Shown here: piece by piece, positions 15,996 through 41,324 of the stretch | Layout: each line of letters begins with the position of its first letter | Numbering within the stretch: the first letter of the stretch is position 1 | Source of the DNA: a virus | IMG/VR virus record: IMGVR_UViG_3300017763_000005 | Span: 33,607-97,606 of that record | DNA length: 64,000 nt | Direction: 5' to 3' (one strand) | Translations under genes and position numbers: made by a program | Notes under the pieces: model-generated | What the model was told of the DNA's origin: nothing | Seen by the model: only the letters and a program-made list of their open reading frames with translations | Databases searched by the model: none

Positions 15996-16311
15996 GTCCA
16001 ATTCCTATTGTTGATTGATTAGTTTCGTTAGCATAATCTAACGAATCTGTTATTATATATTGTAGTACAGCTCCAAGATAGTTTTTAAATGTCTCATCTT
16101 TATCAAGTTCATCTACACTAAACTCGCCTGGATCTTGTACTGTATAGTTAAATGTAAGTGTAGCCATGTCCAGTGCTGGATCTTCTTTGATACCAACCTG
16201 TCCATAAACTACGATTACATCTTTCCATGTACCTGTTTTAAGAAGTACTCCACTTAAAGGGCTATTCTCATTTTCTACAATTGAGTAGTCTTTTTCAGAT
16301 ACATTATACAT
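15949..16311 (-). CDS. gp40-like head vertex assembly chaperone (positional)
   Basis: Lies between uvsX and gp41 as in T4; VYGQV..L.FNY pattern. Confidence 0.55.
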   Translation of the reverse strand: MYNVSEKDYSIVENENSPLSGVLLKTGTWKDVIVVYGQVGIKEDPALDMATLTFNYTVQDPGEFSVDELDKDETFKNYLGAVLQYIITDSLDYANETNQSTIGIGHDESTTDTHTESSSQ

Positions 16312-17363
16312 TAGTCTTCCGTTTCAATATCAAGATCAATATCAATCATTGGTCTATGTCCAATTGAATAATATGTTTTAACAAACTCTTTAAAGTCTGT
16401 ATTTTTAAAGATTGGATCCCAGAATTTTTTAGTAAGAGTATCTTTTTCTCTTACTTTAGTATCGTTAATTTCTCCAGTTTTCATATCAACTGCAGCGTAC
16501 CAACCAACGTTTGGTTTAGTTACATATCCACCAGCAAGAGCTACAGTTAAGAGTCCACTATACTGCTCAATACCACCTTCCCATGAAACACTAATAGGTA
16601 CTTTAGATTTTTCTTTTACAAACCTAGATTTCTCTACATTGATTACAAAGTGATACCCTTGAATCTCTGTTCCTTTTTTATCTTGTTGTCTTCCAATAAT
16701 CCAAATGTTATCAGCTGAATAGTAAATACCAGTACCACCTGATACTACAGCTTTTGGAAATAAACCAATCTCTTGATAGGTATGGTTCACCGCAAGTAAA
16801 GGGATATTCTTCATAGTAAGATAAGGAGTAACCATTCTGAATAGTCCCTTTAATGCTTTAGCTCTTGTCATATCAGCAACTGATTTCTCATTCAAAGCAT
16901 CTTCCAATTCTTTTTTGGACGCTAAATTACCAATTGAATCAATAACCACTATGACTTTATCGTTTCTTTCAATATTTTCTAACTGACCAACTAAATCAAA
17001 TTTAAGTTGCTCAACATCAGTAATTGGAGTATGTAATACTCTTGATGTATCGATACCAAAAGATTCGAAATAAGATTGTGGTGAACCAAATTCTGAATCG
17101 TAAAATAACATTACGGCATCTTCATGTTGTTTTAAATATGCTGCACCCATTAATAATGCAAATGAGGTTTTGAAATGTTTAGATGGACCAGCAAGAACTG
17201 TAAGTCCTGATGTTAATCCTCCATCAATATCTCCTGATAATGCAACGTTAACCATTGGCACATCAGTAGTAATTATGTCTTTCTCTGCAAAAAGAATAGA
17301 CTTGGATAGTATAGATGTTTCTTTTATCTTACTATTTTTCTTTAATTTATCCATTATAGACAT
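16311..17363 (-). CDS. uvsX: RecA-like recombinase
   Basis: AGPSKHFKT, FYDSEFG, DSIGNLASKKE, SGGTGIYYSAD. Confidence 0.97.
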   Translation of the reverse strand: MSIMDKLKKNSKIKETSILSKSILFAEKDIITTDVPMVNVALSGDIDGGLTSGLTVLAGPSKHFKTSFALLMGAAYLKQHEDAVMLFYDSEFGSPQSYFESFGIDTSRVLHTPITDVEQLKFDLVGQLENIERNDKVIVVIDSIGNLASKKELEDALNEKSVADMTRAKALKGLFRMVTPYLTMKNIPLLAVNHTYQEIGLFPKAVVSGGTGIYYSADNIWIIGRQQDKKGTEIQGYHFVINVEKSRFVKEKSKVPISVSWEGGIEQYSGLLTVALAGGYVTKPNVGWYAAVDMKTGEINDTKVREKDTLTKKFWDPIFKNTDFKEFVKTYYSIGHRPMIDIDLDIETED

Positions 17364-17364
17364 A

Positions 17365-17631
17365 TTATCTTCTCCTGCCTTTTTGAGGCTTCATGTATGC
17401 ATCATTGATGCGTTGTAATTTACGAGTTCTACTAATAGCTTCGGCTTTTTTGCGTTGCCTTCTTTGAGCTGGTTTTTCGTAGTACTGGCGTTCGCGTACT
17501 TCTTGTACGATGCCTGCTTTCTCACAGGCTTTTTTAAATTTGCGAAGTCCTACATCAAAAGGCATTTCCTTTTGAGGACGTTTATCTCGCGGGTTTCGAT
17601 TGGGCCTTGGCCTTAAATCAATACTGGGCAT
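17365..17631 (-). CDS. rpsU: 30S ribosomal protein bS21
   Basis: [31 protein letters not shown] matches the bS21 core. Confidence 0.9.
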
Positions 17632-17663
17632 ATATTCTCCGTGTTTTATTTCTCATTGTATAT

Positions 17664-17693
17664 ATTATACCATAAAATCAGTGAGTTGTAAAC
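17664..17693 (-). promoter_or_regulatory. Early promoter for rpsU-uvsX-41
   Basis: GTTTACA-N17-TATAAT embedded in the 3' end of the MTase-like gene. Confidence 0.8.
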
Positions 17694-18852
17694 TGTTTTT
17701 TTCATATTCATAGGTTCTTTTTTTATTGTCTTGAACTAAGAATTGAGTATCTACTAACTCAAGGTTATTATTTAAATATTCTTTAACCATACGTGCTGGA
17801 TGTTCAGCTGTCGTTACAGGTACATTTTGACATATATGATTTAAAGATCTTTTTGCATCAAGCAATACAAAGTTAAATGGTAACTTCATAAGCGATAAAG
17901 CTTCTCTTACTGTTAAGTAACGATCTTCATCTGGATGTGTTAAGCAAGTTGGCATATGTCCAACAAAAGCTCCTATTTTATCTTTAGGAATCTCTGTTGT
18001 TTTTCTCATGATATTACCACCCGCTTTAAGTTTATGATATTGTCTATCGCATTTCTTTGCTACATTCTCAAAACCGTTTGCTCTCATCCATTTAGCAACT
18101 TCTTTGTAGGTTGTTCTTTCTTCTATGTAATCCATAGGGTTAGTTGTCTTTTCTATTTTATTTTGAAATTCACTGTGGGATATACCACCTTCCAACTCCT
18201 CTAATACATATTTATAGTATGGCTCTTCTGAAGGAGTCTTATCGTTACAAAGTATTTGACTCATTGGATCATTATCGCAGCGTTTTACTTCTCTTATATC
18301 ATCAGCAATCATAGTTGGTTTTTCTAATACATAATCAAATAATGGTACTTGATCTCCTTTCCAAAAGAAATAAAATGTACGATCTCTTACTTGACTTAAT
18401 CCATGTAATATTGATTTTGTTTTAAAGATACTAAATGTATATCCATGTTCTTCTCCAATCTTTCTTAATCTTCGAACTACTGGTTCTCCCATCTTACTTG
18501 CTAACCTAGGAGCATTCTCTCCCCAAAAGACTTTTGGTTGAACCTCACCAAGTACATATTCTGCAGACTTATACATCCATTCGTTCATAGGATTATTACT
18601 CGAAGCAGATGGACTAAGTGAGCTGAGCCCTGCACATGGGCATACAGTATTAATCACATCAACTTTTTCTGTGTAACTCGCTCCCTCTGAGAGGTTCAAA
18701 TATGGGACACTATGGTTGTAATAATTGTTTAAGTGACTTTCATTAGCTTGAAATCCCTCAAACGTTAAGAAATACTTTGGCTTTTCTCCAAAGACATTTT
18801 CCATTGCTATTGTTTCTCCACCTATTAGTGGTACTATACTTGCGTAACTCAT
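17665..18852 (-). CDS. C5 DNA-cytosine methyltransferase-fold protein with atypical motif I
   Basis: CPCAGLS (IV), GENAP (VI), QVRDRTF (VIII), DRYLTVREA (IX), ICQNVP (X); motif I reads IVPLIGG; likely start MSYASIV at 18852. Confidence 0.8.
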   Translation of the reverse strand: MSYASIVPLIGGETIAMENVFGEKPKYFLTFEGFQANESHLNNYYNHSVPYLNLSEGASYTEKVDVINTVCPCAGLSSLSPSASSNNPMNEWMYKSAEYVLGEVQPKVFWGENAPRLASKMGEPVVRRLRKIGEEHGYTFSIFKTKSILHGLSQVRDRTFYFFWKGDQVPLFDYVLEKPTMIADDIREVKRCDNDPMSQILCNDKTPSEEPYYKYVLEELEGGISHSEFQNKIEKTTNPMDYIEERTTYKEVAKWMRANGFENVAKKCDRQYHKLKAGGNIMRKTTEIPKDKIGAFVGHMPTCLTHPDEDRYLTVREALSLMKLPFNFVLLDAKRSLNHICQNVPVTTAEHPARMVKEYLNNNLELVDTQFLVQDNKKRTYEYEKNSLQLTDFMV

Positions 18853-19829
18853 CCGAAAAACTCCTCTAATCCTTGAGGTTCCATTCCATTCCAATGTGGA
18901 TAGAACTCTCTTGATAAATGTATTGATTGTGGCTTCTCCATATATTTAAAATCGAGCTTGCCTTCTTGATTGTATAAGTACTCAGTCCATCTTATAATAC
19001 CATATTGTTTTTCAATATAGTCATTAAACTGATTTCTCCAATCGTTTCTTTCTTTCCATGAACCATAAAATGGTTGACCTTTATAGAAACCTGATTGTGG
19101 TATTCTTCTACTGACATCTTCAATTGGAAGCAACTCATAAATTTTAGCTTTATACTTACTTGCTTCTTCAATATATCTATCAGCCAAATCTTCTACCTTT
19201 TGTTCTAATCTTATTGCATGATGACGAACATCAATATTACCAAAATAACATTCAAGCTCGTCGTATTCATGTGGTATGAATGTATCAAATCCTTCATTGA
19301 TAGCTCCATTCAAAGTTTTAAATGGAACACTGTTGACTGTCCAGCCTGGACGATACATACATATTGAATGACTATCGCCAATAACTAGTTTACGAGTTGG
19401 ATTGATATAGTCTACTCTTTCAGCTTCATTAAACATTCTTTCTAGATTTTTTAAGTCTACATCATGCCATTCTGGCTGAACCTCTTTTTTAGCCGATTCC
19501 AGTTTTGATTTAACCATTTCGTGGTACGGCGGGAAGTCGATTCCAATGGAATAGACTTTACCTTTGAACTGAGAAAAATTAACAGTGTTCTTAACATAAG
19601 GAAAACCGTATACGCCACCAAACATATTAATTCCACCACTCCAATCAGTACCATGATAGACCCAAAGGTTATCATAAATATTATGGTCTTCAATTTCTCC
19701 ACCGTAGTTAACATCGCAGTTTCCATATTTCTCCTTTATCATATCTCCATACATTACTCCAGCAGCACCTCTATGAGAACCTGGTCTCTTTGCTATTGGA
19801 ATAAATGGACAATTAATTATATTTTTCAT
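18849..19829 (-). CDS. Uncharacterised protein in the DNA-modification cassette
   Basis: LVIGDSHS, FGNIDVRHH and SIHL (SGNH-like blocks); ATGA overlaps on both sides; ends LEEFFG. Confidence 0.7.
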   Translation of the reverse strand: MKNIINCPFIPIAKRPGSHRGAAGVMYGDMIKEKYGNCDVNYGGEIEDHNIYDNLWVYHGTDWSGGINMFGGVYGFPYVKNTVNFSQFKGKVYSIGIDFPPYHEMVKSKLESAKKEVQPEWHDVDLKNLERMFNEAERVDYINPTRKLVIGDSHSICMYRPGWTVNSVPFKTLNGAINEGFDTFIPHEYDELECYFGNIDVRHHAIRLEQKVEDLADRYIEEASKYKAKIYELLPIEDVSRRIPQSGFYKGQPFYGSWKERNDWRNQFNDYIEKQYGIIRWTEYLYNQEGKLDFKYMEKPQSIHLSREFYPHWNGMEPQGLEEFFG

Positions 19830-20890
19830 TCAAAAAACTCCGTGAGTGTATTAGTTTTTTGTACTCTTGCTACACGTCTACGTGCGCAAGCTTTTTCATC
19901 TTCTCTTATTTGAAGGTATACTCCAAACTGACATGATAGAACTTCTGTTCCATAATACTTAAGAGAATCTTGTTCGTATTGAAACAATTTAGTTCCATCT
20001 TTCTTATCGATATTAAATGCTTCAGGATGAAAGACCACATCTTTTGTAAGTCCAATCTCATCTGCATTTTCTCTCATAAAATAAATTGCTTCATCATATA
20101 GTTTCTTTGGAGCATCAGGCCACATAAGTTCTATTGTATAAACTGCTCCTGGTCCAGGCGCTACAAATCTTTGATCATGATGATACCTCATTTGTGGTAA
20201 TACTGAAGATGAAGCTGCTCCGTGAAATCCGTAGTAATGTCCTATACCAGGCTGTTCTCTTAAAAGATTATATATCTCTGACATATGATCACAGAGTTGC
20301 ATACGTTCTAAGAATCCAGTATCTCTAAATGAAGATACCCATTCACATACATCAACTGGATGAAACTTTCTATTTGGTTCGTTATACTTTCTTCTACAAT
20401 GGTTTCTACCAGCTGTTTGAATAGAAGTATGTAATTCAGTCGTTCCCCATATTGGTTGTTTATTTGCAATTGCTTTATCTAAATTCTGTCTTATTGATTG
20501 AATATAATCTTTGTCTTCATCTGCAAATCTATCAAAGTCTACAAATACATTATCTTCTCCTGAAGCTAAGAAGTGAACTCCTCTCCCTCCATAAAAATGA
20601 GATATAAAAGTATTACCAACAATATTCATTATTGAAGTATCTAAACTTGCAATCTCTTGACCAATAAATCTCATACGATCATCAAGTGTAATTGTTGGAT
20701 GAAAATATTCTACATCTTCTCCAAGACCAAAGTCTGCATCTCCATGTCGATTAACAGCTTCATATGTTTCATCGATATAACCAAGTTGAATACCTGATCT
20801 TTGATTGACTTTATATAAGAACCAATTGAACTCTTTCATGAGTTCTTTATCGTAGTTCCACCAATCGTAATTATATTTAATACTTGACAC
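19826..20890 (-). CDS. aGPT-Pplase / amino-acid:DNA-transferase-like protein (HhH fold)
   Basis: YFHPTITLDDR, PGIGHYYG (HhH-like), FVAPGPGA, TEVLSCQFGVY; ends LTEFFE. Confidence 0.65.
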   Translation of the reverse strand: MSSIKYNYDWWNYDKELMKEFNWFLYKVNQRSGIQLGYIDETYEAVNRHGDADFGLGEDVEYFHPTITLDDRMRFIGQEIASLDTSIMNIVGNTFISHFYGGRGVHFLASGEDNVFVDFDRFADEDKDYIQSIRQNLDKAIANKQPIWGTTELHTSIQTAGRNHCRRKYNEPNRKFHPVDVCEWVSSFRDTGFLERMQLCDHMSEIYNLLREQPGIGHYYGFHGAASSSVLPQMRYHHDQRFVAPGPGAVYTIELMWPDAPKKLYDEAIYFMRENADEIGLTKDVVFHPEAFNIDKKDGTKLFQYEQDSLKYYGTEVLSCQFGVYLQIREDEKACARRRVARVQKTNTLTEFFE

Positions 20891-21257
20891 GTTCCTCGTT
20901 ATCTCTTTTACAATGTACTATTGAGACGTTTGGACATCTCTTTCTAATTTCTTTAATTTGTATAGGATCATCTTCAAAATGCATTTGAACTTCTATACCA
21001 AGATCTTTTAACATATTAATCATTTGACCTTTAAAAATACCAGAAGCTTTTCTTCCATAAATTGAATTATCATAACGGTCAAGTGGATTCATATATACGG
21101 TATTATATATGCCTCTTGAATGTAGCATTTTTTCTGTAGCTTCTCTATCATGATACGGCCGCCCCGTAAGAATTATGTCATTCTCACAGGGTCTTACGCC
21201 GGTGACGTCTTCGCCAAAATAGATCACACCATCAATGTCAAAACTATTAACTTTCAT
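20877..21257 (-). CDS. HAD-superfamily phosphatase
   Basis: FDIDGV (DxD), LTGR, K and FEDD motifs; capless C0 type. Confidence 0.85.
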   Translation of the reverse strand: MKVNSFDIDGVIYFGEDVTGVRPCENDIILTGRPYHDREATEKMLHSRGIYNTVYMNPLDRYDNSIYGRKASGIFKGQMINMLKDLGIEVQMHFEDDPIQIKEIRKRCPNVSIVHCKRDNEERVKY

Positions 21258-22539
21258 AATCAGTTTGACCAGCTTGGAAGGTGAAAGGCAAGTCTTTAGC
21301 CTTTGGTCTATTTTCCTTGAGCTGAGGTTTAGTCATGTCTGTAATGACTCTTCTCGCTAAGGCGTCACATTCAAATTTAGCATCCTCAGTTTTTAACTGT
21401 ACTGGAGGAGTCTTTTGAGTCCAAGCTGATGGTCCTCTTAGATATCCAACAATACCCATTTCTGATGCTACCTTACAAAATCTAATTGCTGAAACAACAA
21501 CTCCACCAGAGTTTGGCGAATCTTGAACTGAAAGTCTTGCTGACATTTCGTATCTTGCTCCTGCAAATCCATAAGCAACCATATCAAAGTTTGCTATCTT
21601 ATTATCAGATGAAATAAAATCTCCACCTGGTTTTTGTTGAACAGTAAGAGATGGACCAGCAAATAAAGTCATACCTGCTGTAGACTCATCTCTTACAATA
21701 TTCTGACCTTTAAGAACATTTTCTTTTGAGATATGTTTGTTTTTTAATCTATATTGTTTAGCCATATTTAAGAAGTCAGTATTAGCTGTTCTTCCTGTTC
21801 TAATATGTTCTTGACCTTGTGTAGATCCAGCTGCCATATTCATTTGAATATGTTGAGTAATCATAAGTCCTGAATCAAGCATTGCACCTTGTAAAACTTC
21901 TGACATTCTTGAAGCTCCCCAAGCTGATCTCATATCTGATCCAATGAAACTTAAACCAGCATCTATAAATCTTTGTTCAACTTCTAATGCATCATCAGTT
22001 GAAATTAATGTAGGAATACAATTAACAAAATGTACTCCAGCTGCAACTGCGACATCAATCCAATATCTTGATGCTTCTTCTGATCCTACTGGTAAGTAAT
22101 TAATAAGTACGTCTACATTATGATACTGTAATAACTCAACTGTTCTATCGAACGATTCAGCTGGAACAGCTCCATTTACAAATGTGACTTCATCTGGATA
22201 GTCATGCATATGTGGTGCTATCCCGTCCATTTCTGGAGCTGAATAGACCATTGCGTCTTTATGTACGCATGAACTATTTGATGTAGTAGTAATTTTATCG
22301 ACATGATCCATAGCACAATTAGGTTGAGCTCGTAAAGCTTTTGCTAATTTCTTATTTACTTTTCTCTTATCGATATCAAATCCAACGACAAATTCTATAT
22401 CGTGTACTGAATATCCTCCGATATCTTCATACATAAGACCTATTTTATCTTCTGGATTTTCGTTATAATATTGAATTCCCTCTACGAGAGACTTCGCACA
22501 TGATCCGACACCTATGATGCCTGCTTTTATTTTTGACAT
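21247..22539 (-). CDS. ino1: myo-Inositol-1-phosphate synthase
   Basis: GIIGVGSCAKSLVEG NAD-binding, VLINYLPVGS, FVNCIP, NTDFLNM, SKEN, DSPNSGGVV. Confidence 0.93.
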   Translation of the reverse strand: MSKIKAGIIGVGSCAKSLVEGIQYYNENPEDKIGLMYEDIGGYSVHDIEFVVGFDIDKRKVNKKLAKALRAQPNCAMDHVDKITTTSNSSCVHKDAMVYSAPEMDGIAPHMHDYPDEVTFVNGAVPAESFDRTVELLQYHNVDVLINYLPVGSEEASRYWIDVAVAAGVHFVNCIPTLISTDDALEVEQRFIDAGLSFIGSDMRSAWGASRMSEVLQGAMLDSGLMITQHIQMNMAAGSTQGQEHIRTGRTANTDFLNMAKQYRLKNKHISKENVLKGQNIVRDESTAGMTLFAGPSLTVQQKPGGDFISSDNKIANFDMVAYGFAGARYEMSARLSVQDSPNSGGVVVSAIRFCKVASEMGIVGYLRGPSAWTQKTPPVQLKTEDAKFECDALARRVITDMTKPQLKENRPKAKDLPFTFQAGQTDYES

Positions 22540-22607
22540 AATTTTTCTCCTTGTTTATATCAGTTTATTTGAGTGAGAAATTTGGCTGGGAGACCCAGAG
22601 TAGCTCA

Positions 22608-22913
22608 CTATATACTATTAGTTATAACACTTATCAAGCCACTTCCTAAGATGAGACATGCTGCTGTGTTTAAAATTATCAACGCTCTATCTTTCCAGAT
22701 AAGAGCTACTACTAACCAACCGAAACATCCTATTAAGGAAAAGGTTTGATCGTAGATCGCAAGATCAGGACTTGATCTTACTGCCATTGCCAATAAAAGA
22801 ATAGCAGATGCTACCCATTTTATATACCAATCGATTGTATACTTAGGAGTTGCACTCTTAAATATACGTTTTGAATTCTCTAATTCTTTTGCGTCAAACT
22901 TTGATTGACTCAT
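22608..22913 (-). CDS. Small membrane protein (3 TM)
   Basis: WYIKWVAS...GW..VA..WKDRALIILN pattern. Confidence 0.75.
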   Translation of the reverse strand: MSQSKFDAKELENSKRIFKSATPKYTIDWYIKWVASAILLLAMAVRSSPDLAIYDQTFSLIGCFGWLVVALIWKDRALIILNTAACLILGSGLISVITNSI

Positions 22914-23355
22914 ATTCTATACCTGCTTCTTCAAATAATTGTTCTGTTAATGTATCGCTTTTATTCCAACGATCTGGAGTATCTTGAGAGAAAGCCATTA
23001 CTCTTTTGACACCGACTTGGATAAGACCTTTTGCGCATTCGCTACAGGTTGGTAATCCGTGTACATATACTGTCGAGCCTTTTAAAGATACTCCATTTGC
23101 TGCTGCATTGTAAATACAGTTCATTTCTGCATGTACTACATATTTGTATTTTTCTTCTCTGTCATTATATCTTTCTTCAGTATCTTCAATACCTCGTGGA
23201 AACCCATTATAGCCTTGAGCTATGATTTCTCCATTTTCTCCAATAGCAACTGCACCAATTTGTCGGCTTGGATCTTTTGACCACGTGCCAAAGTGCCATG
23301 CTAGAGCGAGATATCTCGTATCCCAATTACTTGATAAGGTCAAAGTGTCTTTCAT
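22894..23355 (-). CDS. cd: dCMP deaminase
   Basis: SKDPS, GYNG, HAEMN and PTCSEC zinc motifs. Confidence 0.93.
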   Translation of the reverse strand: MKDTLTLSSNWDTRYLALAWHFGTWSKDPSRQIGAVAIGENGEIIAQGYNGFPRGIEDTEERYNDREEKYKYVVHAEMNCIYNAAANGVSLKGSTVYVHGLPTCSECAKGLIQVGVKRVMAFSQDTPDRWNKSDTLTEQLFEEAGIEYESIKV

Positions 23356-24007
23356 ATACGTGTAAGTTTTGTACTTGCCAGTGAATATCACCTAAGCCAA
23401 TATGACCTAGTACTTTTTCTTTATTAAGATCTGATGCTAAGTTAACGAGTACTTGTTTTTGCCAAGCATAATCGTTTTTATAACCAAACACTACATCATT
23501 AGATCTCATTTGAACTACACAATGTAGTTCTCTATTTCTAATATAATACGTTACTGCATTAGTACAAATAAAATCGTTTTTACCATTCTCATCAAATTCA
23601 AACCAGATGCTTGGTCTTTGATAGACCATACTTGCTCGTCTTGAATCAATATTGTATGTAAGTTCATTTAATACTTGTTGATATTGACAATGAAACTTAG
23701 GACTATAAATGAGATGACCATAATTAGAATTGATTTCACCATGAATATTAGCAGTTGATTGCCAAGCTTTTGGTGGTTCTTTATCTCCTTCAGGATAGAT
23801 ATCAGTTATATTCGTTGATTCAGATTGATACCAATCGAGTTCAGCTTTAATATATTCTCTGTTTGGAGTACCAAAGATTGCTGGTTTATCAGCAAGAAAT
23901 GATGCACCAATAATTTCTACAGTCTTACATCCAGTTTTATCTGTTGTAAACTGTTTTGATTCAAGAGCATTAACAAATATCTCTGCGATATCTTTAGTCG
24001 TCTGCAT
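23327..24007 (-). CDS. 42: dCMP hydroxymethyltransferase (T4 gp42-like)
   Basis: DKTG.KT.EIIGASF.AD, GEINSNYG, DSRR, DFICTN, MRSNDVVFGYKNDYAWQ, LHVY.RHF; closely follows T4 gp42 as recalled. Confidence 0.9.
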   Translation of the reverse strand: MQTTKDIAEIFVNALESKQFTTDKTGCKTVEIIGASFLADKPAIFGTPNREYIKAELDWYQSESTNITDIYPEGDKEPPKAWQSTANIHGEINSNYGHLIYSPKFHCQYQQVLNELTYNIDSRRASMVYQRPSIWFEFDENGKNDFICTNAVTYYIRNRELHCVVQMRSNDVVFGYKNDYAWQKQVLVNLASDLNKEKVLGHIGLGDIHWQVQNLHVYERHFDLIK

Positions 24008-24323
24008 TTTGAATCCTGTTATTGAACATATCTCTATTTGGATCTTGGCCTTCCATTTTACCACGAGCATAAGCAACTGCAAAAGAACAATAGTTAATCA
24101 TGTCTTTATAAGTATCTTCAATGCTTTCGAAGTTTGGTTCATCGGTTGATTCAAGCAATGATGTTGCTCGCATAATTTTACCAAGAATGATATCATGAAT
24201 AGTATCAATGCCGCGTCTATAATGCATTGCTTGTACTACTGTAGATTCAGAGCTTTGGTAGTCTTGAGATTTTTTAGTTTGTAGTTCTGCACATTCTTGC
24301 AGGACTCTTAGGCTTTCTTTCAT
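23994..24323 (-). CDS. Nucleotide-modification-associated helical protein (Nmad1/DUF1599-like)
   Basis: KKSQDY...K..R...ESIEDTYKDMINY pattern. Confidence 0.65.
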   Translation of the reverse strand: MKESLRVLQECAELQTKKSQDYQSSESTVVQAMHYRRGIDTIHDIILGKIMRATSLLESTDEPNFESIEDTYKDMINYCSFAVAYARGKMEGQDPNRDMFNNRIQNADD

Positions 24324-24351
24324 AATGTCTCCATAATTTATTAATAGTTAT

Positions 24352-24381
24352 ATTATACCATACTTTAGCGTAAATGTAAAC
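24352..24381 (-). promoter_or_regulatory. Early promoter heading the DNA-modification operon
   Basis: GTTTACA-N17-TATAAT with extended TG. Confidence 0.8.
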
Positions 24382-24808
24382 AAGTTTTTTCACTAAATTT
24401 AAATCCATCCCATTCATAGTATCCACCAAGTTTATAGTAGGTATTTTCTTTTGGATCGTTGACAAAGATCATAGCTTTATCTGCTGCAGGTTTGCCCCAC
24501 AAGTCTAAATTTCTTCTATGCTCGTTAAGTCTTTGTAATACGCTTGGTATATATTGAGAAATTTTCGTAACCTTGACTTCTACCCATTTATTGTCAAGAT
24601 CAATTACGTCTTGATACATAGCAGGATTATCTGTGTAACCAATTTTCTCAATTAGAAACCATTCAGCTGTATGACCATACTCAACGGTTTCTATTATCTT
24701 TTCTAATGACCTTCCCTTACGTGTATTAGGATTATTAAATATTAATTCTGCTTCTGCTTTTGCTCTTTTATGAAGAGCCTCATTATCTAATTCGTTCTTA
24801 TCAAACAT
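24365..24808 (-). CDS. Hypothetical protein (possible PD-(D/E)xK-like)
   Basis: AE...QDVID...VEVKV pattern. Confidence 0.55.
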   Translation of the reverse strand: MFDKNELDNEALHKRAKAEAELIFNNPNTRKGRSLEKIIETVEYGHTAEWFLIEKIGYTDNPAMYQDVIDLDNKWVEVKVTKISQYIPSVLQRLNEHRRNLDLWGKPAADKAMIFVNDPKENTYYKLGGYYEWDGFKFSEKTCLHLR

Positions 24809-25260
24809 TATGGCTTATATATTATCCCCTGTTCATTTAGAGCTGCTCTATTCCACATATGACCTTTAATAGTATCTTCTTTTGATTGTCCCATGTATGG
24901 AACTGCATGATGATTATCCATCATAAGTTGATTAACACTTTTTTCAATATCAACTTCAAATACTGGATGACCTTCGGCATGTTTTTCTATTATAAAGATC
25001 TCTCCAATAATTCTTCCAAACTTACCTTTATCATGAACTATTAATTCAACTTCAGTTTCTTCTAATAAAGATGTAAGAAAATATTTTGCTTGTTTACCAT
25101 AATACTTTTCTTCTAAGTCTCTTGTTCTTGACTCTGGAGTATCAATACCCATTAATCTTACTCTTTGTTTTTTCATCCATATACCAAAACCAAGATCGAT
25201 GTCTACATCAACTGTATCTCCATCTACGATTCGAGTAACGTCAACTTTATATCTGTACAT
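24808..25260 (-). CDS. Thermonuclease (SNase-like)
   Basis: IVDGDTVDV, RLMGIDTPES, GKFGR. Confidence 0.9.
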   Translation of the reverse strand: MYRYKVDVTRIVDGDTVDVDIDLGFGIWMKKQRVRLMGIDTPESRTRDLEEKYYGKQAKYFLTSLLEETEVELIVHDKGKFGRIIGEIFIIEKHAEGHPVFEVDIEKSVNQLMMDNHHAVPYMGQSKEDTIKGHMWNRAALNEQGIIYKP

Positions 25261-25269
25261 TATTGTCTC

Positions 25270-25827
25270 CTACTTATAAAATATATGATTATTTATAACA
25301 ACAGTATTGTTCAATGAGTCAGCCCAGTAAGGATGTACACTATCTGAATGATAATGTGTAGAACCTTCAGTTATATCTCCATACTTATCTTGTAAAACAT
25401 CTCTTGCTACATGCATCGAATATAACCAAGTAGGACTATCAACTGGATCATCTGATTTACCATCACAGAACCAGCTAAACTGACATTGATTTCGTATTGG
25501 AACTACTTCATTTTTCCAATTAACTCTCATTTTAGCTTGATAAACTACACCACATATCGTCGTAGGATAATTAAAATGATTAACTCTATTTAAAACAACT
25601 TGAGCTACTGCAATTTTTCCAGCTAATGGTTGATTACCTGCTTCAAAATAAATATTTTGAGCTAAACAATATTGTTCTCCATTTGGATCAGATGCATAAG
25701 CTCTTGGTACAGCAAACATAACAGCTCCAAGTAAAAATCCAAATAGCATTCCACTTAAAAATGATTTGAACATTTTACGTCCTTGTTCGTTAACTTCTTT
25801 ATCTATTGCTTTGCCAAATTTACTCAT
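25270..25827 (-). CDS. Cell wall hydrolase (SleB/Hydrolase_2)
   Basis: CLAQNIYFEA, VVLNRV, CQFSW, THYH, HIFY; N-terminal TM. Confidence 0.92.
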   Translation of the reverse strand: MSKFGKAIDKEVNEQGRKMFKSFLSGMLFGFLLGAVMFAVPRAYASDPNGEQYCLAQNIYFEAGNQPLAGKIAVAQVVLNRVNHFNYPTTICGVVYQAKMRVNWKNEVVPIRNQCQFSWFCDGKSDDPVDSPTWLYSMHVARDVLQDKYGDITEGSTHYHSDSVHPYWADSLNNTVVINNHIFYK

Positions 25828-26741
25828 ATATTATTTTTAAACACGAATTCAATAGCTCGTGCAGCCTCCTTTTCTAAATCACGTTTTGAATACCAACCAC
25901 CTGTATCAAGATCTAAGTCTCTACAAATGTACTCAATCTCTTTAGGAGTAATTGGATATCCTTTACTCATAGCATTACCTGCTGTTGTTAGCATGATTTG
26001 ATACATCTTAGAGTACCAACCAGTACCAGTAATACCTTTATATTCATCAATCTGTTTTTTGTTTACAAATGGACAATCACGATATGATGTCCAACTAAAG
26101 TTAGTATTATTTAATTCATTGCGTTTTCTTTCAAGTAAAGCTTTTTGTATTGCTTCAGGAAAACGATCGAACATTGTTTGATTAGGTTTGACGTATGGAT
26201 ACTTTTCCATAAGGTCATTTGGATTCATAATATCTCCATCATGAGAGAATATGAAGTTGAAACTGTTTTTATATTTAGCAGGAACATAATACATTCTGCT
26301 TAAGTCTTTGGTTTGAGCATCAGCAATATCGCCAATCTCTTTATTTAAAGCATACCAAAAATGCTTAATATCATCGGTATCTACATTGCATGTCAATGGA
26401 AATACTAAACGAAACTTTGGAGATTCAACTGTAGATGAAGCTGTTGAATAACAAACATAACGATACTTATCATACTTTGATTCGATATCTTTCATATCTC
26501 CTTCATAGTCATCAATATCAAGAATACCAAAGCCACCCCAACCTACAACATTATCGTTTGCACGAGTAGTATCAGGTTGATAAATGGCTGGACTTAAAAG
26601 AGGAGCATCCTTCTTTGTAGGATACTTTGTAGATTCTGATAGCTTATACAGGATAGCCTCGAACTCGTCGAAGCTAGTATAGTCCATACGTTTATCTGTT
26701 TTATTATCGTATATACTATCGAATATCGTTAAACTTACCAT
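25824..26741 (-). CDS. Primase-polymerase (AEP-like) primase
   Basis: LLSPA.Y, R..DNV, LDIDD, YSTASS, KFRLVFPL, DLSRMYYVP. Confidence 0.7.
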   Translation of the reverse strand: MVSLTIFDSIYDNKTDKRMDYTSFDEFEAILYKLSESTKYPTKKDAPLLSPAIYQPDTTRANDNVVGWGGFGILDIDDYEGDMKDIESKYDKYRYVCYSTASSTVESPKFRLVFPLTCNVDTDDIKHFWYALNKEIGDIADAQTKDLSRMYYVPAKYKNSFNFIFSHDGDIMNPNDLMEKYPYVKPNQTMFDRFPEAIQKALLERKRNELNNTNFSWTSYRDCPFVNKKQIDEYKGITGTGWYSKMYQIMLTTAGNAMSKGYPITPKEIEYICRDLDLDTGGWYSKRDLEKEAARAIEFVFKNNI

Positions 26742-27129
26742 GATTGTCTTTGTGACTTGGTGCCTCCCAATCTTCAGGTTTAATTAAGTCTGGTAATCCA
26801 AGTGGATTAGGTCTTTCTGGTTTTACGCCGACTTGTTTATTCATATTTGCTTTAAGTACTTCATCCCATGCTTTATATGGATTAATTCCAAAAGCATCTA
26901 GTGTACCAATTGCTACAACACAAAGATCGATAAGACCATCAACTATTTCTTCTGCATCAGTACTTATAAGTGCTGCTTCAGTTTCATCAAGCTCTTCTCT
27001 TAAGAAGTCAACTCTAAATTGTAAGTATGTACGAAGTTTATCTGGATTTTCTTTGTTTTCTTCCATCCATTTCTTTACACCATACTTATCATGCATGATT
27101 GCAATATCTCTTACCCAATCAAAACTCAT
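26716..27129 (-). CDS. MazG/PRA-PH-like NTP pyrophosphohydrolase (candidate dCTPase/dUTPase)
   Basis: EELDE...EEIVDGLID...ANMNK...KPEDW. Confidence 0.8.
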   Translation of the reverse strand: MSFDWVRDIAIMHDKYGVKKWMEENKENPDKLRTYLQFRVDFLREELDETEAALISTDAEEIVDGLIDLCVVAIGTLDAFGINPYKAWDEVLKANMNKQVGVKPERPNPLGLPDLIKPEDWEAPSHKDNHGKFNDIR

Positions 27130-27616: not shown

Positions 27617-30148
27617 TTATCCAAAAAAATCCTCAAGGCTTGCGACTTCTTTTGAGTTCCAGCCAACTGCATCCAATATTGGTTCAATTGGATCGAGGAA
27701 AGTTTTTTGAAATTGTATCTCATGATCAATATATTTTCTTAAGCCAAACTCTTCAGGAAGATAGTCTGGAAAAGCAATTACATTTTCATGAATTGAATTT
27801 GGTTGACGAAGATATAAGAACTTAATCTTTTCGCCATTATTGATTGGTTCATATTTCTTTTTAAGTTGCATATCTTCTACAAGTTTGTTATATAGAATAG
27901 AACCACGAACATGAATAGGTGTACCTTTTTTATAGAGAGTATTTCTATCCTGCCATTTGCGAACTTGAGTTACGCCTCTTGGAAAGGCAATCTCGTCTGG
28001 TTCAAGCGTTTTAAAATAGTTTTTGAATTGTTCGATTGCTTGTTGAACTGATGACTCATCTTCTTTCATGATAACGTGAAAGATCTTTTTAAGAGCTTCA
28101 CGACATGGAGCTGGTGTAGAAGACTTAATAGCTTCAATACCCATAATTTTGAGTTTTGGTTCAGCATATCTTACGCCTTCGTTGTCATGTACATTCATAA
28201 TATATCGTTTCTTTGCAGTCCAAAGAGCACGATCAGCAATTGCTTCACGTTTCATGACCATACGATTATCTACACCGCCTAATATATCATAGAGTTCAGC
28301 ATAAGACTTTTCAAGCTCTGGTTCCAAAGCATCTTGGCAAACTTTATCTAAGAAATCGATTGGATTGTTTGGTTGTACCTTTTTGACGAGATCGTCTAAG
28401 CTAACATACAACGAGTCGGTGTCGATTGCAACGATATAATCTTTCCAGTCTCTGTTTTGGAGCACTCGATTGAGGTAGGAGTTAAGCGCATATTCGGCCC
28501 ATCGTATTGTAAGTTGTCCGGTGAGGGTAATTGCTTCTGCGATTCGTTGGTCAAAAAAGCGAAAGTAGCGATTCCCCATAGCACCATACAAGCTATTAAG
28601 GAGAATCTTAATCGACATTTGTCTGTTTTCTGCGATTGCAATATCTCTTTCGATTCGATACATTTCTTGTTTATCATTTTTATCTACCTTTTGTAATTCT
28701 TTTTGAGCATCAATCATTTGTTGCTTGATTTCTACACGTTCTTTATACATCTCATCGATAATAAATGGAACAATACCTTGTCGATCAGTTCGAAAATATT
28801 GGCCATTTGCAGCAAGAGCTTTACCACGATTGTCAGGACGAGTAGATTTAGTAAGAACATTTTCAATATCAAACTGAGTAATCTCTCCATTGGCAATCGT
28901 TTCTGGCGACATGTTGTATTGCATAATGATTGATGGATATAGTGAGTTAAGATCAAACGATACAATATTGTCATGTATTCCTACATGAGGATCTTTTACA
29001 AACCCGCCAGGATAAGCTGACTTTGTTTTATCTTCGATAAATGGAACAACGATATTGTTTGCAAACAGTTTACGATATATAATCGTATCCCATATCAATG
29101 TTGTACCAAACGTGTCATTATAGTTTACGCCACCTTTATATGCCATTGTCATGCAAAGTGTAATTAATCCAAGCTTATCTTCGATACGATCTACAAGCTC
29201 AACGTCTTTGATATTATAGTCAATAAACTTTTGATGATTATGTTTGTAAAGAGTATGAAGATTAGAATACTCTTCGTATGAGAGTTTCTTTTCGCCAAGT
29301 ACAACATGAGCAATATGATCAAGTTTATACGACTCTTGTGGACCATATGAATAACCAAACTTTTTAAATAAGTCAAGATAATCTAATTGAGATATACCTT
29401 TAAGCTCATAAGCAGTTTGAGTTCTACCCATCTTAGTTATTTCTTGTCTGTCAACCATACCCCAAGGACTTAGCCTTTTGACATATGATTCGCCAAGCAT
29501 ACGATTAATACGATTGACAAGATATGGAATATCAAAGAACCTTGTATTCCAGCCAGTAACAACGTCTGGACTATATTGTTGAGAAGACCAATGAGTAATA
29601 AAGTTAATAAGCAAATCGTCTTCACGATCAAACTTACGATATACAACCATGTGATCTTTCATGTATGATTGTTCAGTGTCATAGTCGCCAAGTCCCCATA
29701 CGTAATATGTTCCACCAATATTACTTTTCATTGCAATCGATATAACTTTATGATCAGCCTTTTCTGGCTCAGGGAATCCATCATCGGATGCGACTTCGAT
29801 ATCGATTGTGGTTACGTTGATTTTATTACGATTGAATTCAACTTCACCTGGGTAATAGTCATTGATAAAAGCAGGAATATACTTTGTATTTCCATAGATT
29901 GTTTTACCTGAGACTCCTTTGTTTGCAGTAACGTATTCGTTAGCTGCTCTCATAGATTCGAATCTCTTACCAGCATTAGCTACGCCGACAGGAGTTCCAT
30001 CTAGAGCTTTCCAATTTGTTTTTAGATTTGTGGATGTAAAAAGGATTGGTTCGTATTTGATTTTCTTTTCGATTCTTCGACCATGATCATATCCTCGTAA
30101 AAGAATTTGATTGCCATATCGAGAAACGTTAGTATAGAATTGCAACAT
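27617..30148 (-). CDS. 43: Family B DNA polymerase (T4 gp43)
   Basis: DIEV exonuclease, SFDLNSLYPS, KILLNSLYG, IDTDS, C-terminal SLEDFFG. Confidence 0.98.
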   Translation of the reverse strand: MLQFYTNVSRYGNQILLRGYDHGRRIEKKIKYEPILFTSTNLKTNWKALDGTPVGVANAGKRFESMRAANEYVTANKGVSGKTIYGNTKYIPAFINDYYPGEVEFNRNKINVTTIDIEVASDDGFPEPEKADHKVISIAMKSNIGGTYYVWGLGDYDTEQSYMKDHMVVYRKFDREDDLLINFITHWSSQQYSPDVVTGWNTRFFDIPYLVNRINRMLGESYVKRLSPWGMVDRQEITKMGRTQTAYELKGISQLDYLDLFKKFGYSYGPQESYKLDHIAHVVLGEKKLSYEEYSNLHTLYKHNHQKFIDYNIKDVELVDRIEDKLGLITLCMTMAYKGGVNYNDTFGTTLIWDTIIYRKLFANNIVVPFIEDKTKSAYPGGFVKDPHVGIHDNIVSFDLNSLYPSIIMQYNMSPETIANGEITQFDIENVLTKSTRPDNRGKALAANGQYFRTDRQGIVPFIIDEMYKERVEIKQQMIDAQKELQKVDKNDKQEMYRIERDIAIAENRQMSIKILLNSLYGAMGNRYFRFFDQRIAEAITLTGQLTIRWAEYALNSYLNRVLQNRDWKDYIVAIDTDSLYVSLDDLVKKVQPNNPIDFLDKVCQDALEPELEKSYAELYDILGGVDNRMVMKREAIADRALWTAKKRYIMNVHDNEGVRYAEPKLKIMGIEAIKSSTPAPCREALKKIFHVIMKEDESSVQQAIEQFKNYFKTLEPDEIAFPRGVTQVRKWQDRNTLYKKGTPIHVRGSILYNKLVEDMQLKKKYEPINNGEKIKFLYLRQPNSIHENVIAFPDYLPEEFGLRKYIDHEIQFQKTFLDPIEPILDAVGWNSKEVASLEDFFG

Positions 30149-33690: not shown

Positions 33691-34362
33691 TTATACATTG
33701 TAGCTTGAGTTTTTCTCAAGAGCGATAAAATAATCCACTGGATAGTTACTGTTAGTCCAGTTAGAGATTAGCTTTGAGCTTATGCTTACAAAGTAATCGC
33801 CTGGTAGTAACTTCAAGTTTGGAATACTTACCACGAAGTTAAATTCATTTTTACATGAATTGTCTTTATCTAGTTCAATCTCAAACACGTTTGAAGTTGA
33901 GTCTCTTGTATCTAATACAGAAGCTTCAATTATTCCATTGTTGCCTGTGATTGCTAGTTCAGTATGACCTAAAACAGCTGCAGCTTTTCGAATCTGATTT
34001 AGTTTATCTTCTTCGATATTAACTCCAAGCTCTGGATCAGGCATCTGAATTTCTTTTTGAGGTGTGGTTAGGATATCGCTTTCAGAAAAGAAATATCTAA
34101 TCTTTTGTCCACTACCTTGAATTAATACTGACTTGTCTTCGAACTGTAAAGTTGGTTGGTCAATCAAACTTAAGACTGATAAGAATTCATTTAAGTCATA
34201 GACTCCAAACTCTTGTGGAAAGTCTTCTACAATAGTTGCTGATGCAAGAATCGTTTTAGACTCTGAAATTGTCTTTAATTTTTGACCTGGTTGAAATACC
34301 AAGTTAGGATTAATTGTTGCGAAGTTTTTTAACACATTCACGGTGTCATTTGATAGATTCAT
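33691..34362 (-). CDS. 45: Sliding clamp (gp45)
   Basis: LKNFATINPN, FGVYDLNEFL, NLKLLPGDY, YFIALE. Confidence 0.96.
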   Translation of the reverse strand: MNLSNDTVNVLKNFATINPNLVFQPGQKLKTISESKTILASATIVEDFPQEFGVYDLNEFLSVLSLIDQPTLQFEDKSVLIQGSGQKIRYFFSESDILTTPQKEIQMPDPELGVNIEEDKLNQIRKAAAVLGHTELAITGNNGIIEASVLDTRDSTSNVFEIELDKDNSCKNEFNFVVSIPNLKLLPGDYFVSISSKLISNWTNSNYPVDYFIALEKNSSYNV

Positions 34363-41142: not shown

Positions 41143-41324
41143 GCTTGTTTTGCGAGACTCATCATGCGTTTTTGAGCTTTCATAATTCGCCTTCCAGCTA
41201 ATTTAATCTTTTCCATTTTAGCAGCAATGACTACTCTATGGACTTTACGCTTTTCTTCACGTTGAGTTCTTTTCTTCATAAGACGCATATGTCTTAGATT
41301 TTGTTTTGTGCTTACTTTTTTCAT
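41139..41324 (-). CDS. Small basic hypothetical protein
   Basis: 61 aa, Lys/Arg-rich, coupled between gp55 and gp47. Confidence 0.55.
   Translation of the reverse strand: MKKVSTKQNLRHMRLMKKRTQREEKRKVHRVVIAAKMEKIKLAGRRIMKAQKRMMSLAKQA

Follow-up and report, generated by a model that had tools for sequence, protein, structure and literature searches.

A phage operon joining hydroxymethylcytosine synthesis to a putative inositol kit points to a possible inositol-bearing DNA base

Why should a T4-like phage encode a myo-inositol-phosphate synthase (MIPS) among the genes that make and modify hydroxymethylcytosine (hmC)? The question is raised by a 64,000-nucleotide stretch of viral DNA (the window), in which minus-strand positions 24380-17665 form a single compact nine-gene unit of an uncultured marine T4-like phage (Table 1). 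The operon combines hydroxymethylcytosine synthesis, a two-gene inositol kit and three DNA-directed enzymes, a combination that points to a putative inositol-bearing DNA base. We give a probability of roughly 55% to the reading that the cassette is a post-replicative hmC hypermodification pathway, standing in place of the T4 glucosyltransferase and yielding an ether-linked inositol base. No published description of an inositol-bearing DNA base was found.

Table 1. Cassette genes, promoter and context features, by position in the window
Feature	Position	Strand	Evidence
UvsX recombinase (context)	16311..17363	-	56% identical to Mendera recA-like recombinase; synteny with T4
C5-cytosine methyltransferase-fold protein, 395 aa	17665..18852	-	PF00145 E 2.7e-14; ends LQLTDFMV
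Two-domain enzyme, 326 aa	18849..19829	-	beta-glucosyltransferase-like N-domain and SGNH serine-esterase/acyltransferase domain; ends GLEEFFG
PF18723 helix-hairpin-helix protein, 354 aa	19826..20890	-	PF18723 E 1.2e-10; ends TLTEFFE
Small capless HAD phosphatase, 126 aa	20877..21257	-	four HAD motifs; phrog_415 PNK-type
MIPS homologue, 430 aa	21247..22539	-	E 5.7e-49 to M. tuberculosis Ino1 (1GR0)
DUF6552 small hydrophobic protein, 101 aa	22608..22913	-	PF20189 E 4e-17
dCMP deaminase, 165 aa, start codon uncertain	22894..23391	-	PF00383 E 7.8e-19; phrog_174 E 1e-42
T4-type dCMP hydroxymethylase, gp42 homologue, 226 aa from ATG	23327..24007	-	E 8e-70 to T4 gp42 (1B5E)
Nmad1/DUF1599 protein, 109 aa	23994..24323	-	PF07659 E 4.6e-8
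Sigma-70-like early promoter, heads cassette	24352..24380	-	TTTACA, 17 nt, TG-TATAAT; 11/12 consensus match
Family B DNA polymerase gp43 (context)	27617..30148	-	PF00136/PF03104; ends SLEDFFG
gp45 sliding clamp (context)	33691..34362	-	PF09116 E 1.3e-12

All nine minus-strand genes set out by a first-pass annotation of this DNA are present, and the early promoter it placed ahead of them is borne out. The gene junctions measure, in order, -14, -65, -20, +68, -11, -14, -4 and -4 nt, the final four confirming the claimed overlap of the last five genes. The promoter is the joint best within positions 16000-26000, equalled by a site at 17692-17664 ahead of the S21 gene, while promoter-like sites overall are no more numerous than in shuffled sequence. 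Profile or PDB matches and motifs uphold the calls of Nmad-like protein, T4-type dCMP hydroxymethylase, dCMP deaminase, MIPS, HAD phosphatase and C5-methyltransferase-fold protein; those for the 354-aa and 326-aa proteins are revised below.

The hydroxymethylase retains the catalytic Cys (CTN) and, in KNDYAW, the Asp that replaces the uracil-selecting Asn of TS, and both features assign it to gp42. The motif aligns with T4 RNDYAW, where the position of Asp179 is fixed by the PDB D179N mutant entry 6L18. The Nmad1 gene upstream is also kept in related loci. On the downstream side, the UvsX gene borders the T4-type gene 42-gt-uvsX interval. This interval carries a glucosyltransferase in T4, as the annotation had stated, and in the T-even relative phage P8; here the cassette occupies the glucosyltransferase site between gene 42 and uvsX. 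The absence of a recognisable glycosyltransferase holds across the 97.6-kb source record, itself only ~54% complete, which has zero Pfam matches to GT1, GT2, TAGT or T4 beta-gt (PF09198). A gp56-type dCTPase was likewise not found in this half-complete record, so cytosine is perhaps replaced by hmC only in part. With the T4 glucosylation system (gp42, gp56, alpha- and beta-glucosyltransferase) the cassette has in common gp42 with its Asp179 and the genome position. T4 relies on host UDP-glucose, whereas the cassette has a cyclitol-making kit and adds two further Cys-type DNA enzymes.

All three DNA-directed enzymes of the cassette end in a putative gp45 clamp-binding peptide (Table 1), defined by a C-terminal pattern, (S/T)L(D/E)x(F/L)(F/L/M), modelled on the phage's own gp43; the T-even gp43 terminates in SLDFLFG. 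Of the 97 minus-strand ORFs of the window, only five have such a tail: the three cassette enzymes, the polymerase and one further ORF. Homologues of 26% identity still carry the tails, and that of the PF18723 protein is present in all its homologues. The DpdA of phage Mendera, a known DNA enzyme, and a TET/JBP enzyme bear the tail of their own polymerase, whereas the T-even beta-alpha-gt protein has none. Equipped with polymerase-type tails, the three enzymes are expected to work on DNA at the replication fork or in its wake.

The 326-aa enzyme, annotated at first pass as unknown, can be assigned two domains on the basis of its predicted structure (pLDDT 83 for the whole protein and 91 for the N-domain model). 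Residues 145-320 compare with SGNH enzymes at VIA Z 12-14 and Foldseek E 4e-6, and the SGNH set of S153 (GDSH), G175, N198 (GNID) and H304 is invariant in 23 homologues with identity down to 28%; no clear counterpart of the customary DxxH Asp is seen. For the N-domain, the best PDB match by two methods is the N-domain of T4 beta-glucosyltransferase (BGT; Z 7.1, rmsd 2.8, 107 residues), which also supplies the top three Foldseek matches, and hhalign pairs the two at E 7.7e-5 with a probability of 62%. An acceptor-like domain and a YD...N-F-G-G block appear to be kept, and D98 aligns after this block with the catalytic D100 of BGT. The likeness of the modelled domain to beta-glucosyltransferase is modest. 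In contrast to BGT, the enzyme lacks the UDP-sugar-binding GT-B C-domain: the place of the Rossmann fold that binds UDP-glucose is taken by the SGNH domain, and no PF09198 match occurs in the record. Phages 44RR and 31 of Aeromonas encode the PF18723 and 326-aa enzymes as a single fused protein, and the place of MIPS beside it is held by a Na/solute symporter or UDP-galactopyranose mutase gene. Both phages have genes 42 and 56 and no glucosyltransferase (PMC2993671).

The first-pass view of the 354-aa protein as an attaching enzyme of aGPT-Pplase/amino-acid:DNA-transferase type was a mis-assignment. The protein matches PF18723 (41.6 bits against a cut-off of 25, residues 131-278), which bears the Pfam name 5-hmdU DNA kinase, helical domain. 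It does not match PF18724, the amino-acid:DNA transferase (AADT) family, so that membership of that family is not supported; none of the cassette proteins gives a PF18724 profile match. Its identity as the P-loop 5-hmdU kinase was ruled out, as it is of the PF18723 type and a Walker A motif is found in none of the cassette proteins. In phage Ab18 the PF18723 protein and the P-loop kinase are separate genes, and a search for PF18748 (P-loop 5-HMUDK) in this record and four related records, a weak test, returned no match. With no P-loop kinase in the cassette, the activation step must differ from that of the thymidine pathways. The alignment of PF18723 homologues, the RP13 member included, shows invariant GIG, PGPG, Glu316 and Cys320. 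An essential Cys with a neighbouring Glu has been described for AADT (PMC8989533), and the E316...C320 pair of the 354-aa protein resembles it.

Thymidine hypermodification in ViI, M6, PaMx11 and PhiW-14 employs a 5-hmdU DNA kinase and an amino-acid:DNA transferase (PMC8989533). That pathway acts, and the one proposed here would act, post-replicatively on a 5-hydroxymethylpyrimidine through a helix-hairpin-helix family with a Glu/Cys pair, both have Nmad and TS-like genes nearby, and the serine hydroxyl provides a precedent for an O-nucleophile. The base in the cassette pathway would, however, be cytosine instead of uracil, the helix-hairpin-helix protein is a putative enzyme of PF18723, and the putative nucleophile is a phage-made cyclitol in place of an amino acid or polyamine.

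The C5-methyltransferase-fold protein aligns with M.HaeIII (profile E 5e-7) and carries the invariants P72-C73, E112-N113, Q154-R156-R158, an RxxTxRE block and QNVP, so that motifs IV, VI, VIII, IX and X place it within the fold. Motif I (FxGxG) is degenerate, reading V-P-L-I-G-G in 12 of 12 homologues, and the use of AdoMet by this protein is uncertain. Roughly half of the type-A clusters lack this gene.

The putative inositol kit comprises MIPS and the HAD phosphatase. MIPS matches PF01658 (30.7 bits, cut-off 27), and residues 3-390 of its 430 align with M. tuberculosis Ino1 (1GR0, 170 bits) with the catalytic residues kept. The catalytic Asp/Asn/Lys columns (D, N-D-F, K..SK, DNK, DSxNS, KxPP) are invariant in the homologue alignment. 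Unlike Ino1, the phage enzyme invariably occurs with a minimal HAD, extends at its C-terminus into a conserved TFQ..TDYE segment and bears two insertions specific to its clade. In this marine/RP13 clade the insertions lie near active-site segments and DIKSQ becomes DMRSA, including a Lys-to-Arg change by the phosphate loop, which leaves room for a different substrate or product. The HAD protein has no Pfam or PDB sequence match; its nearest atlas clusters are HAD IIIB/PNKP-like, and D7, D9, T31, K76 and E95-D96-D97 (motifs DxDGV, TGR, K, EDD) are invariant in 13 diverse homologues. With intact catalytic residues and no clamp-type C-terminal tail, MIPS and HAD look like soluble small-molecule enzymes.

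These features bear on the nature of the adduct. The kit might feed DNA modification with a product other than a myo-inositol ether, either an inositol phosphate in phosphodiester linkage or, if the activity of MIPS is altered, an inosose or a different carbocycle, and the capless HAD might work after attachment, on a DNA-bound cyclitol phosphate. Capless PNKP-like HAD enzymes, the type found here, often accept large substrates. Consistent with such an adduct are the second-best PDB match of MIPS, a five-membered-cyclitol-phosphate synthase (6K96, 88 bits, E 6.5e-24), the clade-specific changes in MIPS, and the glucosyltransferase-like domain of the 326-aa enzyme, which suggests that the oxygen of hmC stays in place and acts as nucleophile. 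We regard this alternative as rather unlikely: MIPS is much nearer to genuine Ino1 than to the five-membered-ring enzyme, all its catalytic columns are invariant, including those of the insertion-free Cr30 and Mendera enzymes, and HAD has no clamp tail.

To judge from its sequence, gp42 makes hmdCMP. Under the ether reading, MIPS would convert glucose-6-phosphate to inositol phosphate, from which HAD would release myo-inositol. The 326-aa enzyme may grip the flipped-out hmC by its beta-glucosyltransferase-like domain, with Asp98 as base, and its SGNH serine centre may esterify the 5-CH2OH to give a leaving group, a role that falls to the kinase in the thymidine pathways; no acyl donor for this step is evident. 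In the PF18723 enzyme, Cys320 would attack C6 with Glu316 as acid, generating an exocyclic methylene to which an inositol hydroxyl would add; the resulting ether would be 5-(inositol-O-methyl)cytosine. The ViI serine:DNA transferase offers a precedent, since there a hydroxyl adds to an exocyclic methylene produced by a Cys (PMC8989533). The C5-methyltransferase-fold enzyme would be an optional extra, acting on residual cytosine or in a second Cys-C6 transfer. The inositol ether on hmC is our inference from sequence. A parallel is found in RB69 and DLP3, which arabinosylate modified cytosine (PMC13326640): these phages too are T4-like, act on a gp42-family product and make their own donor from a sugar phosphate with a small HAD phosphatase. 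In contrast, their anomeric kinase, nucleotidyltransferase and GT-B glycosyltransferases are absent from the cassette, and activation at an anomeric carbon is not open to a cyclitol, which lacks one.

The co-occurrence of MIPS and HAD with base-modification genes across phages, on which the first-pass proposal turned, is strongly supported. Hypermodification genes lie within 6 kb of MIPS in 148 of 164 viral MIPS loci (115 hmC, 24 ADDT/TET, 7 deazaguanine and 2 mixed), a linkage somewhat inflated by the clustering of early and nucleotide-metabolism genes in T4-like genomes. Only three loci with enough flank have no hypermodification neighbours, and most of the unlinked loci are truncated contigs. 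Along the MIPS tree the types of partner are interleaved and change at least 11 times, and HAD is the sole universal neighbour of viral MIPS (27 of 37 clusters). The order MIPS-HAD-PF18723-326aa is kept in ~70 marine relatives, among which MIPS is at least 74% identical and its partners are down to 26%. That MIPS-HAD belongs to a DNA-modification pathway and is not a stray metabolic gene is well supported by these neighbourhoods.

The opposing view is that MIPS and HAD are an ordinary auxiliary metabolic module, serving osmoprotection, lipids or host physiology, placed in the early region by chance or shared regulation, and that hmC is modified with something else. The Menderavirus MIPS has been annotated in print as a bacteria-like acquired gene (PMC9025141), and accessory genes crowd the few plastic regions of T4-like phages. 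Of 66 further loci with a homologue of the 326-aa enzyme, moreover, 16 have no MIPS, and most of the 13 metagenomic ones among these encode a PLP enzyme instead, which implies that the DNA enzymes do not depend on inositol as such. We nevertheless hold this explanation to be improbable, given that MIPS is adjacent to, and usually the very next gene to, three unrelated modification chemistries in the linked loci, that partner types have switched repeatedly on its tree, that well-flanked loci lacking modification neighbours are so few, and that MIPS is translationally coupled to the DNA enzymes in this cassette.

More broadly, we tentatively suggest, at somewhat less than even odds, that myo-inositol, a cyclitol of the phage's own making, is covalently joined to DNA bases, one portable two-gene kit supplying three base chemistries (those of 7-deazaguanine, hydroxymethylcytosine and oxidised or activated thymine). 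In the present phage this would mean 5-(inositol-O-methyl)cytosine, assembled at the sliding clamp by two enzymes: one of serine-esterase type, derived from a glucosyltransferase, would activate hmC, and the Cys/Glu helix-hairpin-helix enzyme would exchange in the cyclitol. If true, cyclitols on DNA bases would constitute a DNA-modification class so far undescribed. The presence of an identical kit beside three base chemistries without a common transferase also fits an indirect role, in which the product of MIPS and HAD stays off the DNA and serves as an acyl-group carrier for the SGNH enzyme, a cofactor, or a decoy against host defence targeting modified DNA. SGNH transferases use ester donors, in keeping with the first of these roles, and in deazaguanine clusters DpdA is the only DNA enzyme seen to carry a tail. 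Such a role seems to us a slim prospect: no conserved inositol-acylating enzyme lies next to MIPS, DpdA could itself insert a modified free base with no further DNA enzyme needed, and a direct adduct is the simpler reading. At loci L057-L059 the cassette carries an inserted gene for an FkbM-type methyltransferase; O-methyltransferases are among the members of the FkbM family, and this enzyme could accordingly act on a polyol adduct.

Nine genes, all on the minus strand like every other gene discussed here, lie between two promoters that tie for the best score in the 16-26 kb interval, and successive genes are joined at junctions of -14, -65, -20, +68, -11, -14, -4 and -4 nt. The source is a viral contig of 97.6 kb, about 54% complete, from a T4-like phage with 33% G+C. 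The order of genes around the cassette runs gp43, further genes, gene 42, cassette, S21, uvsX and gp41, and the same interval in T4 and one T-even relative reads 43-imm-42-glucosyltransferase-uvsX-40-41. The matching gene order therefore places the cassette in the position of the glucosyltransferase. The first-pass annotation had proposed a nine-gene cassette behind an early promoter, and the genes, junctions, promoter and T4-like synteny all agree with it. The ribosomal protein S21 gene follows directly downstream, with its promoter inside the last cassette gene.

Features of the window and of compared viral loci (L numbers), with coordinates where available
Feature	Coordinates	Strand	Remarks
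Cassette promoter	24380-24352	minus	sigma-70-type, near-consensus: TTTACA, 17 nt, TG-TATAAT; 11/12 matches
Gene 1, Nmad1/DUF1599		minus	
Gene 2, dCMP hydroxymethylase		minus	E 8e-70 to T4 gp42; catalytic Cys and cytosine-selecting Asp179 kept
Gene 3, dCMP deaminase		minus	
Gene 4, DUF6552, small hydrophobic protein		minus	
Gene 5, myo-inositol-phosphate synthase homologue (MIPS)	21247-22539	minus	E 6e-49 to M. tuberculosis Ino1
MIPS C-terminal extension (TFQ..TDYE)	21247-21290	minus	
Gene 6, 126-aa HAD phosphatase	20877-21257	minus	four motifs, all invariant
Gene 7, 354-aa protein	19826-20890	minus	PF18723 match; ends TLTEFFE
Gene 8, 326-aa protein	18849-19829	minus	no Pfam match; ends GLEEFFG
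Gene 9, C5-methyltransferase-fold protein (395 aa)	17665-18852	minus	ends LQLTDFMV
S21 promoter	17692-17664	minus	near-consensus; within 3' end of gene 9
Ribosomal protein S21	17365-17631	minus	PF01165, E 5e-16
Staphylococcal-nuclease-like, cell-wall hydrolase and PRA-PH/MazG-like pyrophosphohydrolase (26716-27129) genes	24808-25827, 26716-27129	minus	upstream of cassette
191-aa ORF	41324-41899	minus	no Pfam match; ends EKLELFM
Mendera DNA polymerase	L002:1775-4453		ends SLEDLFG
Mendera DpdA-like DNA transglycosylase	L002:9482-10696		ends SLDDLFG
TET/JBP oxygenase	L097:6096-7424		ends SLEDLFA
Fusion gene and symporter, Aeromonas phage 44RR2.8t	L084:4408-8388		
326-aa-type locus, Aeromonas phage 25	L085:2776-6047		
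FkbM methyltransferase and alternative oxidase insertion	L057:12711-14008		

Among cultured phages, MIPS homologues occur only in Ralstonia phage RP13, Caulobacter phage Cr30 and the Menderavirus group, and a HAD gene adjoins MIPS in all of them. The MIPS-encoding Stenotrophomonas phages include Mendera, Moby and IME-SM1. The other neighbours are a PF18723 protein, an ADDT-like protein and HMUD2 in RP13, for which heavily modified DNA has been reported (PMC12686479); TET/JBP, ADDT and a weak TAGT match in Cr30; and FolE, QueC, DpdA and QueE in Mendera. Two scans of viral contigs added 160 loci, and among the 164 MIPS loci compared, 148 carry a hypermodification partner within 6 kb of MIPS (115 of the hmC type, 24 ADDT/TET, 7 deazaguanine and 2 mixed). 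The other 16 comprise 12 contigs that end beside MIPS, one locus (L110) where Pfam matches show ADDT and a TS-like gene, and three loci without partners, one of which (L143) resembles a giant-virus bin, while L130 and L167 still had none on re-examination. Close marine relatives whose flanks are long enough, about 70 in number, all keep the order MIPS-HAD-PF18723-326aa. Across the 37 clusters of the MIPS tree, loci of the three partner types are intermingled, requiring at least 11 changes, and together with the linkage in 148 of 164 loci this means that inherited synteny alone cannot explain the pattern. When neighbours were clustered without bias, HAD alone emerged as a universal partner of MIPS (27 of 37 clusters). 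The expected co-occurrence of MIPS and HAD with base-modification genes across phages is thus upheld, and on these genomic comparisons we argue that the pair acts as a portable module supplying DNA hypermodification. Searching the literature for a link between inositol-phosphate synthase and DNA modification in phages gave no relevant result; the one paper there on a phage MIPS regards the gene as a bacterial acquisition (PMC9025141). MIPS is carried by at least 204 close and 409 wider viral contigs.

The DNA polymerase of the window's phage ends in SLEDFFG, and a T-even gp43 ends in SLDFLFG; this C-terminal peptide of gp43 binds the gp45 clamp. Tails of this pattern, found in 5 of the 97 minus-strand ORFs of the window, also terminate the three DNA-type cassette enzymes and are retained in homologues at 26% identity; they are never present in MIPS and HAD. 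As an outside control, both the polymerase and the DpdA-like transglycosylase of Mendera bear the tail, as do a TET/JBP oxygenase and an Aeromonas fusion protein (SLDGLFAI). Taken with the cassette tails, these cases indicate that the tail separates DNA-acting from small-molecule enzymes within these clusters. Judged from sequence, clamp-peptide tails seem to be general for DNA-modifying enzymes of T4-like phages, and may provide a simple sequence mark of such enzymes. A single further C-terminus in the window resembles a clamp tail, that of a 191-aa ORF, a candidate gp55-type late sigma factor by its size.

After Ino1, the second PDB match of MIPS is a five-membered-cyclitol-phosphate synthase, and the window's MIPS clade displays two insertions, with a Lys replaced by Arg near the phosphate loop. 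A literature search on Ari2 for residues setting ring size found nothing. A conserved C-terminal extension beyond the Ino1 fold is common to marine and RP13 MIPS and absent from Cr30 and Mendera MIPS. PDB searches returned no match for the HAD sequence or its profile, nor for the sequences of the 354-, 326- and 395-aa proteins; of this set, only the profile of the methyltransferase-fold protein had a match, to M.HaeIII. That protein keeps motifs IV, VI, VIII, IX and X, with PLIGG as motif I.

The 354-aa protein had been described as resembling amino-acid:DNA transferases, a reading that is not sustained, as its match is to PF18723, named '5-hmdU DNA kinase, helical domain' in Pfam. The PaMx11-like phage Ab18 encodes, in this order, ADDT, an FAD enzyme, GNAT, a P-loop kinase, a PF18723 protein and a TS-like hydroxymethylase, the first four of which match enzymes characterised previously (PMC8989533). 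PF18723 is therefore a separate helix-hairpin-helix protein, neither the demonstrated kinase nor, probably, the amino-acid:DNA transferase. The kinase function implied by the Pfam name is rejected, since P-loop kinase and PF18723 protein are separate adjacent genes in Ab18. Walker A motifs are absent from all cassette proteins, and the P-loop 5-hmdU kinase profiles (PF18748, PF18747), weak even on a true kinase, found no such kinase either in the window's record or in four related records. PF18723 proteins, including that of RP13, invariably have GIG and PGPG turns and a Glu316...Cys320 pair; the pair recalls the Cys and Glu essential to amino-acid:DNA transferases, enzymes that attack C6 to generate an exocyclic methylene (PMC8989533).

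The 326-aa protein, initially labelled unknown, indeed lacks a Pfam match, but two domains are recognisable from its predicted structure (pLDDT 83; 91 for the N-domain alone) and profile. Residues 145-320 are modelled with the fold of SGNH esterases/acyltransferases (VIA Z 12-14; Foldseek E 4e-6), and the corresponding Ser153 (GDSH), Gly175, Asn198 (GNID) and His304 are invariant in homologues down to 28% identity. Two methods agree on the closest PDB structure to the N-domain: the acceptor domain at the N-terminus of T4 beta-glucosyltransferase (Z 7.1, rmsd 2.8 over 107 residues; Foldseek ranks 1-3). Profile comparison also selects this enzyme (E 7.7e-5, probability 62%), aligning a YD...N-F-G-G block, and Asp98, the residue after the block, corresponds to its catalytic Asp100. 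The likeness suggested by model and profile is moderate and falls short of proof.

From the observed gene identities, catalytic residues, tails and linkage we infer the following enzymatic steps. Inositol phosphate would be made by MIPS and dephosphorylated by HAD. The 326-aa enzyme would activate flipped-out hmC at its 5-CH2OH, probably esterifying it via Ser153 with Asp98 as base, standing in for the missing kinase. The putative PF18723 enzyme would then form a Cys-C6 adduct and an exocyclic methylene, to which an inositol hydroxyl would add, as serine does in phage ViI (PMC8989533). The Aeromonas fusion of the 326-aa and PF18723 types fits consecutive steps. The methyltransferase-fold step would be optional; its gene is present in about half of the type-A clusters. 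The cassette would thus be a case of hydroxymethylpyrimidine hypermodification by a phage, carried out by new enzymes and possibly yielding a new adduct class: a cyclitol-bearing base, if real, would stand beside glycosyl, amino-acid and polyamine adducts. Hypermodified bases govern the survival of phage DNA against restriction enzymes and CRISPR nucleases as well as its sequenceability, and hypermodification systems have yielded useful DNA-modifying enzymes. The abundance of MIPS and 326-aa genes implies that a common marine phage DNA chemistry may be unrecognised. The idea is testable by mass spectrometry in the cultured phages Cr30, RP13 and Menderavirus.

Relatives of the 326-aa enzyme are found in about 600 viral contigs, and MIPS adjoins them in 50 of 66 newly fetched loci. 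A single 795-aa fusion protein of the 326-aa and PF18723 types is encoded beside a Na/solute symporter in Aeromonas phages 44RR and 31; in Aeromonas phage 25, the 326-aa type adjoins UDP-galactopyranose mutase and a 358-aa unknown protein ending in LDLIMA. These three phages have been known since 2010 to possess genes 42 and 56 and to lack the glucosyltransferase (PMC2993671), and our finding suggests what substitutes for glucosylation in them. In MIPS-less metagenomic loci the 326-aa-type gene is mostly present as tandem copies, followed in 10 of 13 by a PALP-type PLP enzyme (weak Pfam matches); several have a TS-like gene, and a DUF6378 protein is often nearby (loci L221, L224, L225, L229, L230, L232-L234, L237, L239 and L240). 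The PALP loci would seem to hold another modification on this 326-aa platform, possibly one based on amino acids. These exceptions indicate that the DNA enzymes constitute a general hmC-directed platform with a varying adjoining supply gene, as expected if the supply gene sets the adduct.

Neither a gp56 homologue nor a PF03819 (MazG) match was found in the 97.6-kb, ~54%-complete record. The PRA-PH/MazG-like protein upstream of the cassette was rejected as gp56 itself, having no similarity to the T4 protein (E 0.47); it is a possible candidate for a dCTPase substitute.

The PF18723 gene is deeply divergent among loci L039-L083 (64% or more vs 24-41% identity to the window's copy) in cassettes whose MIPS keeps at least 74% identity, which suggests that this particular enzyme has been replaced or evolves fast. 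In three otherwise syntenic cassettes (L057-L059), the PF18723 and 326-aa genes are separated by inserted genes for an alternative oxidase and an FkbM-family methyltransferase; the methyltransferase could tailor a polyol adduct.
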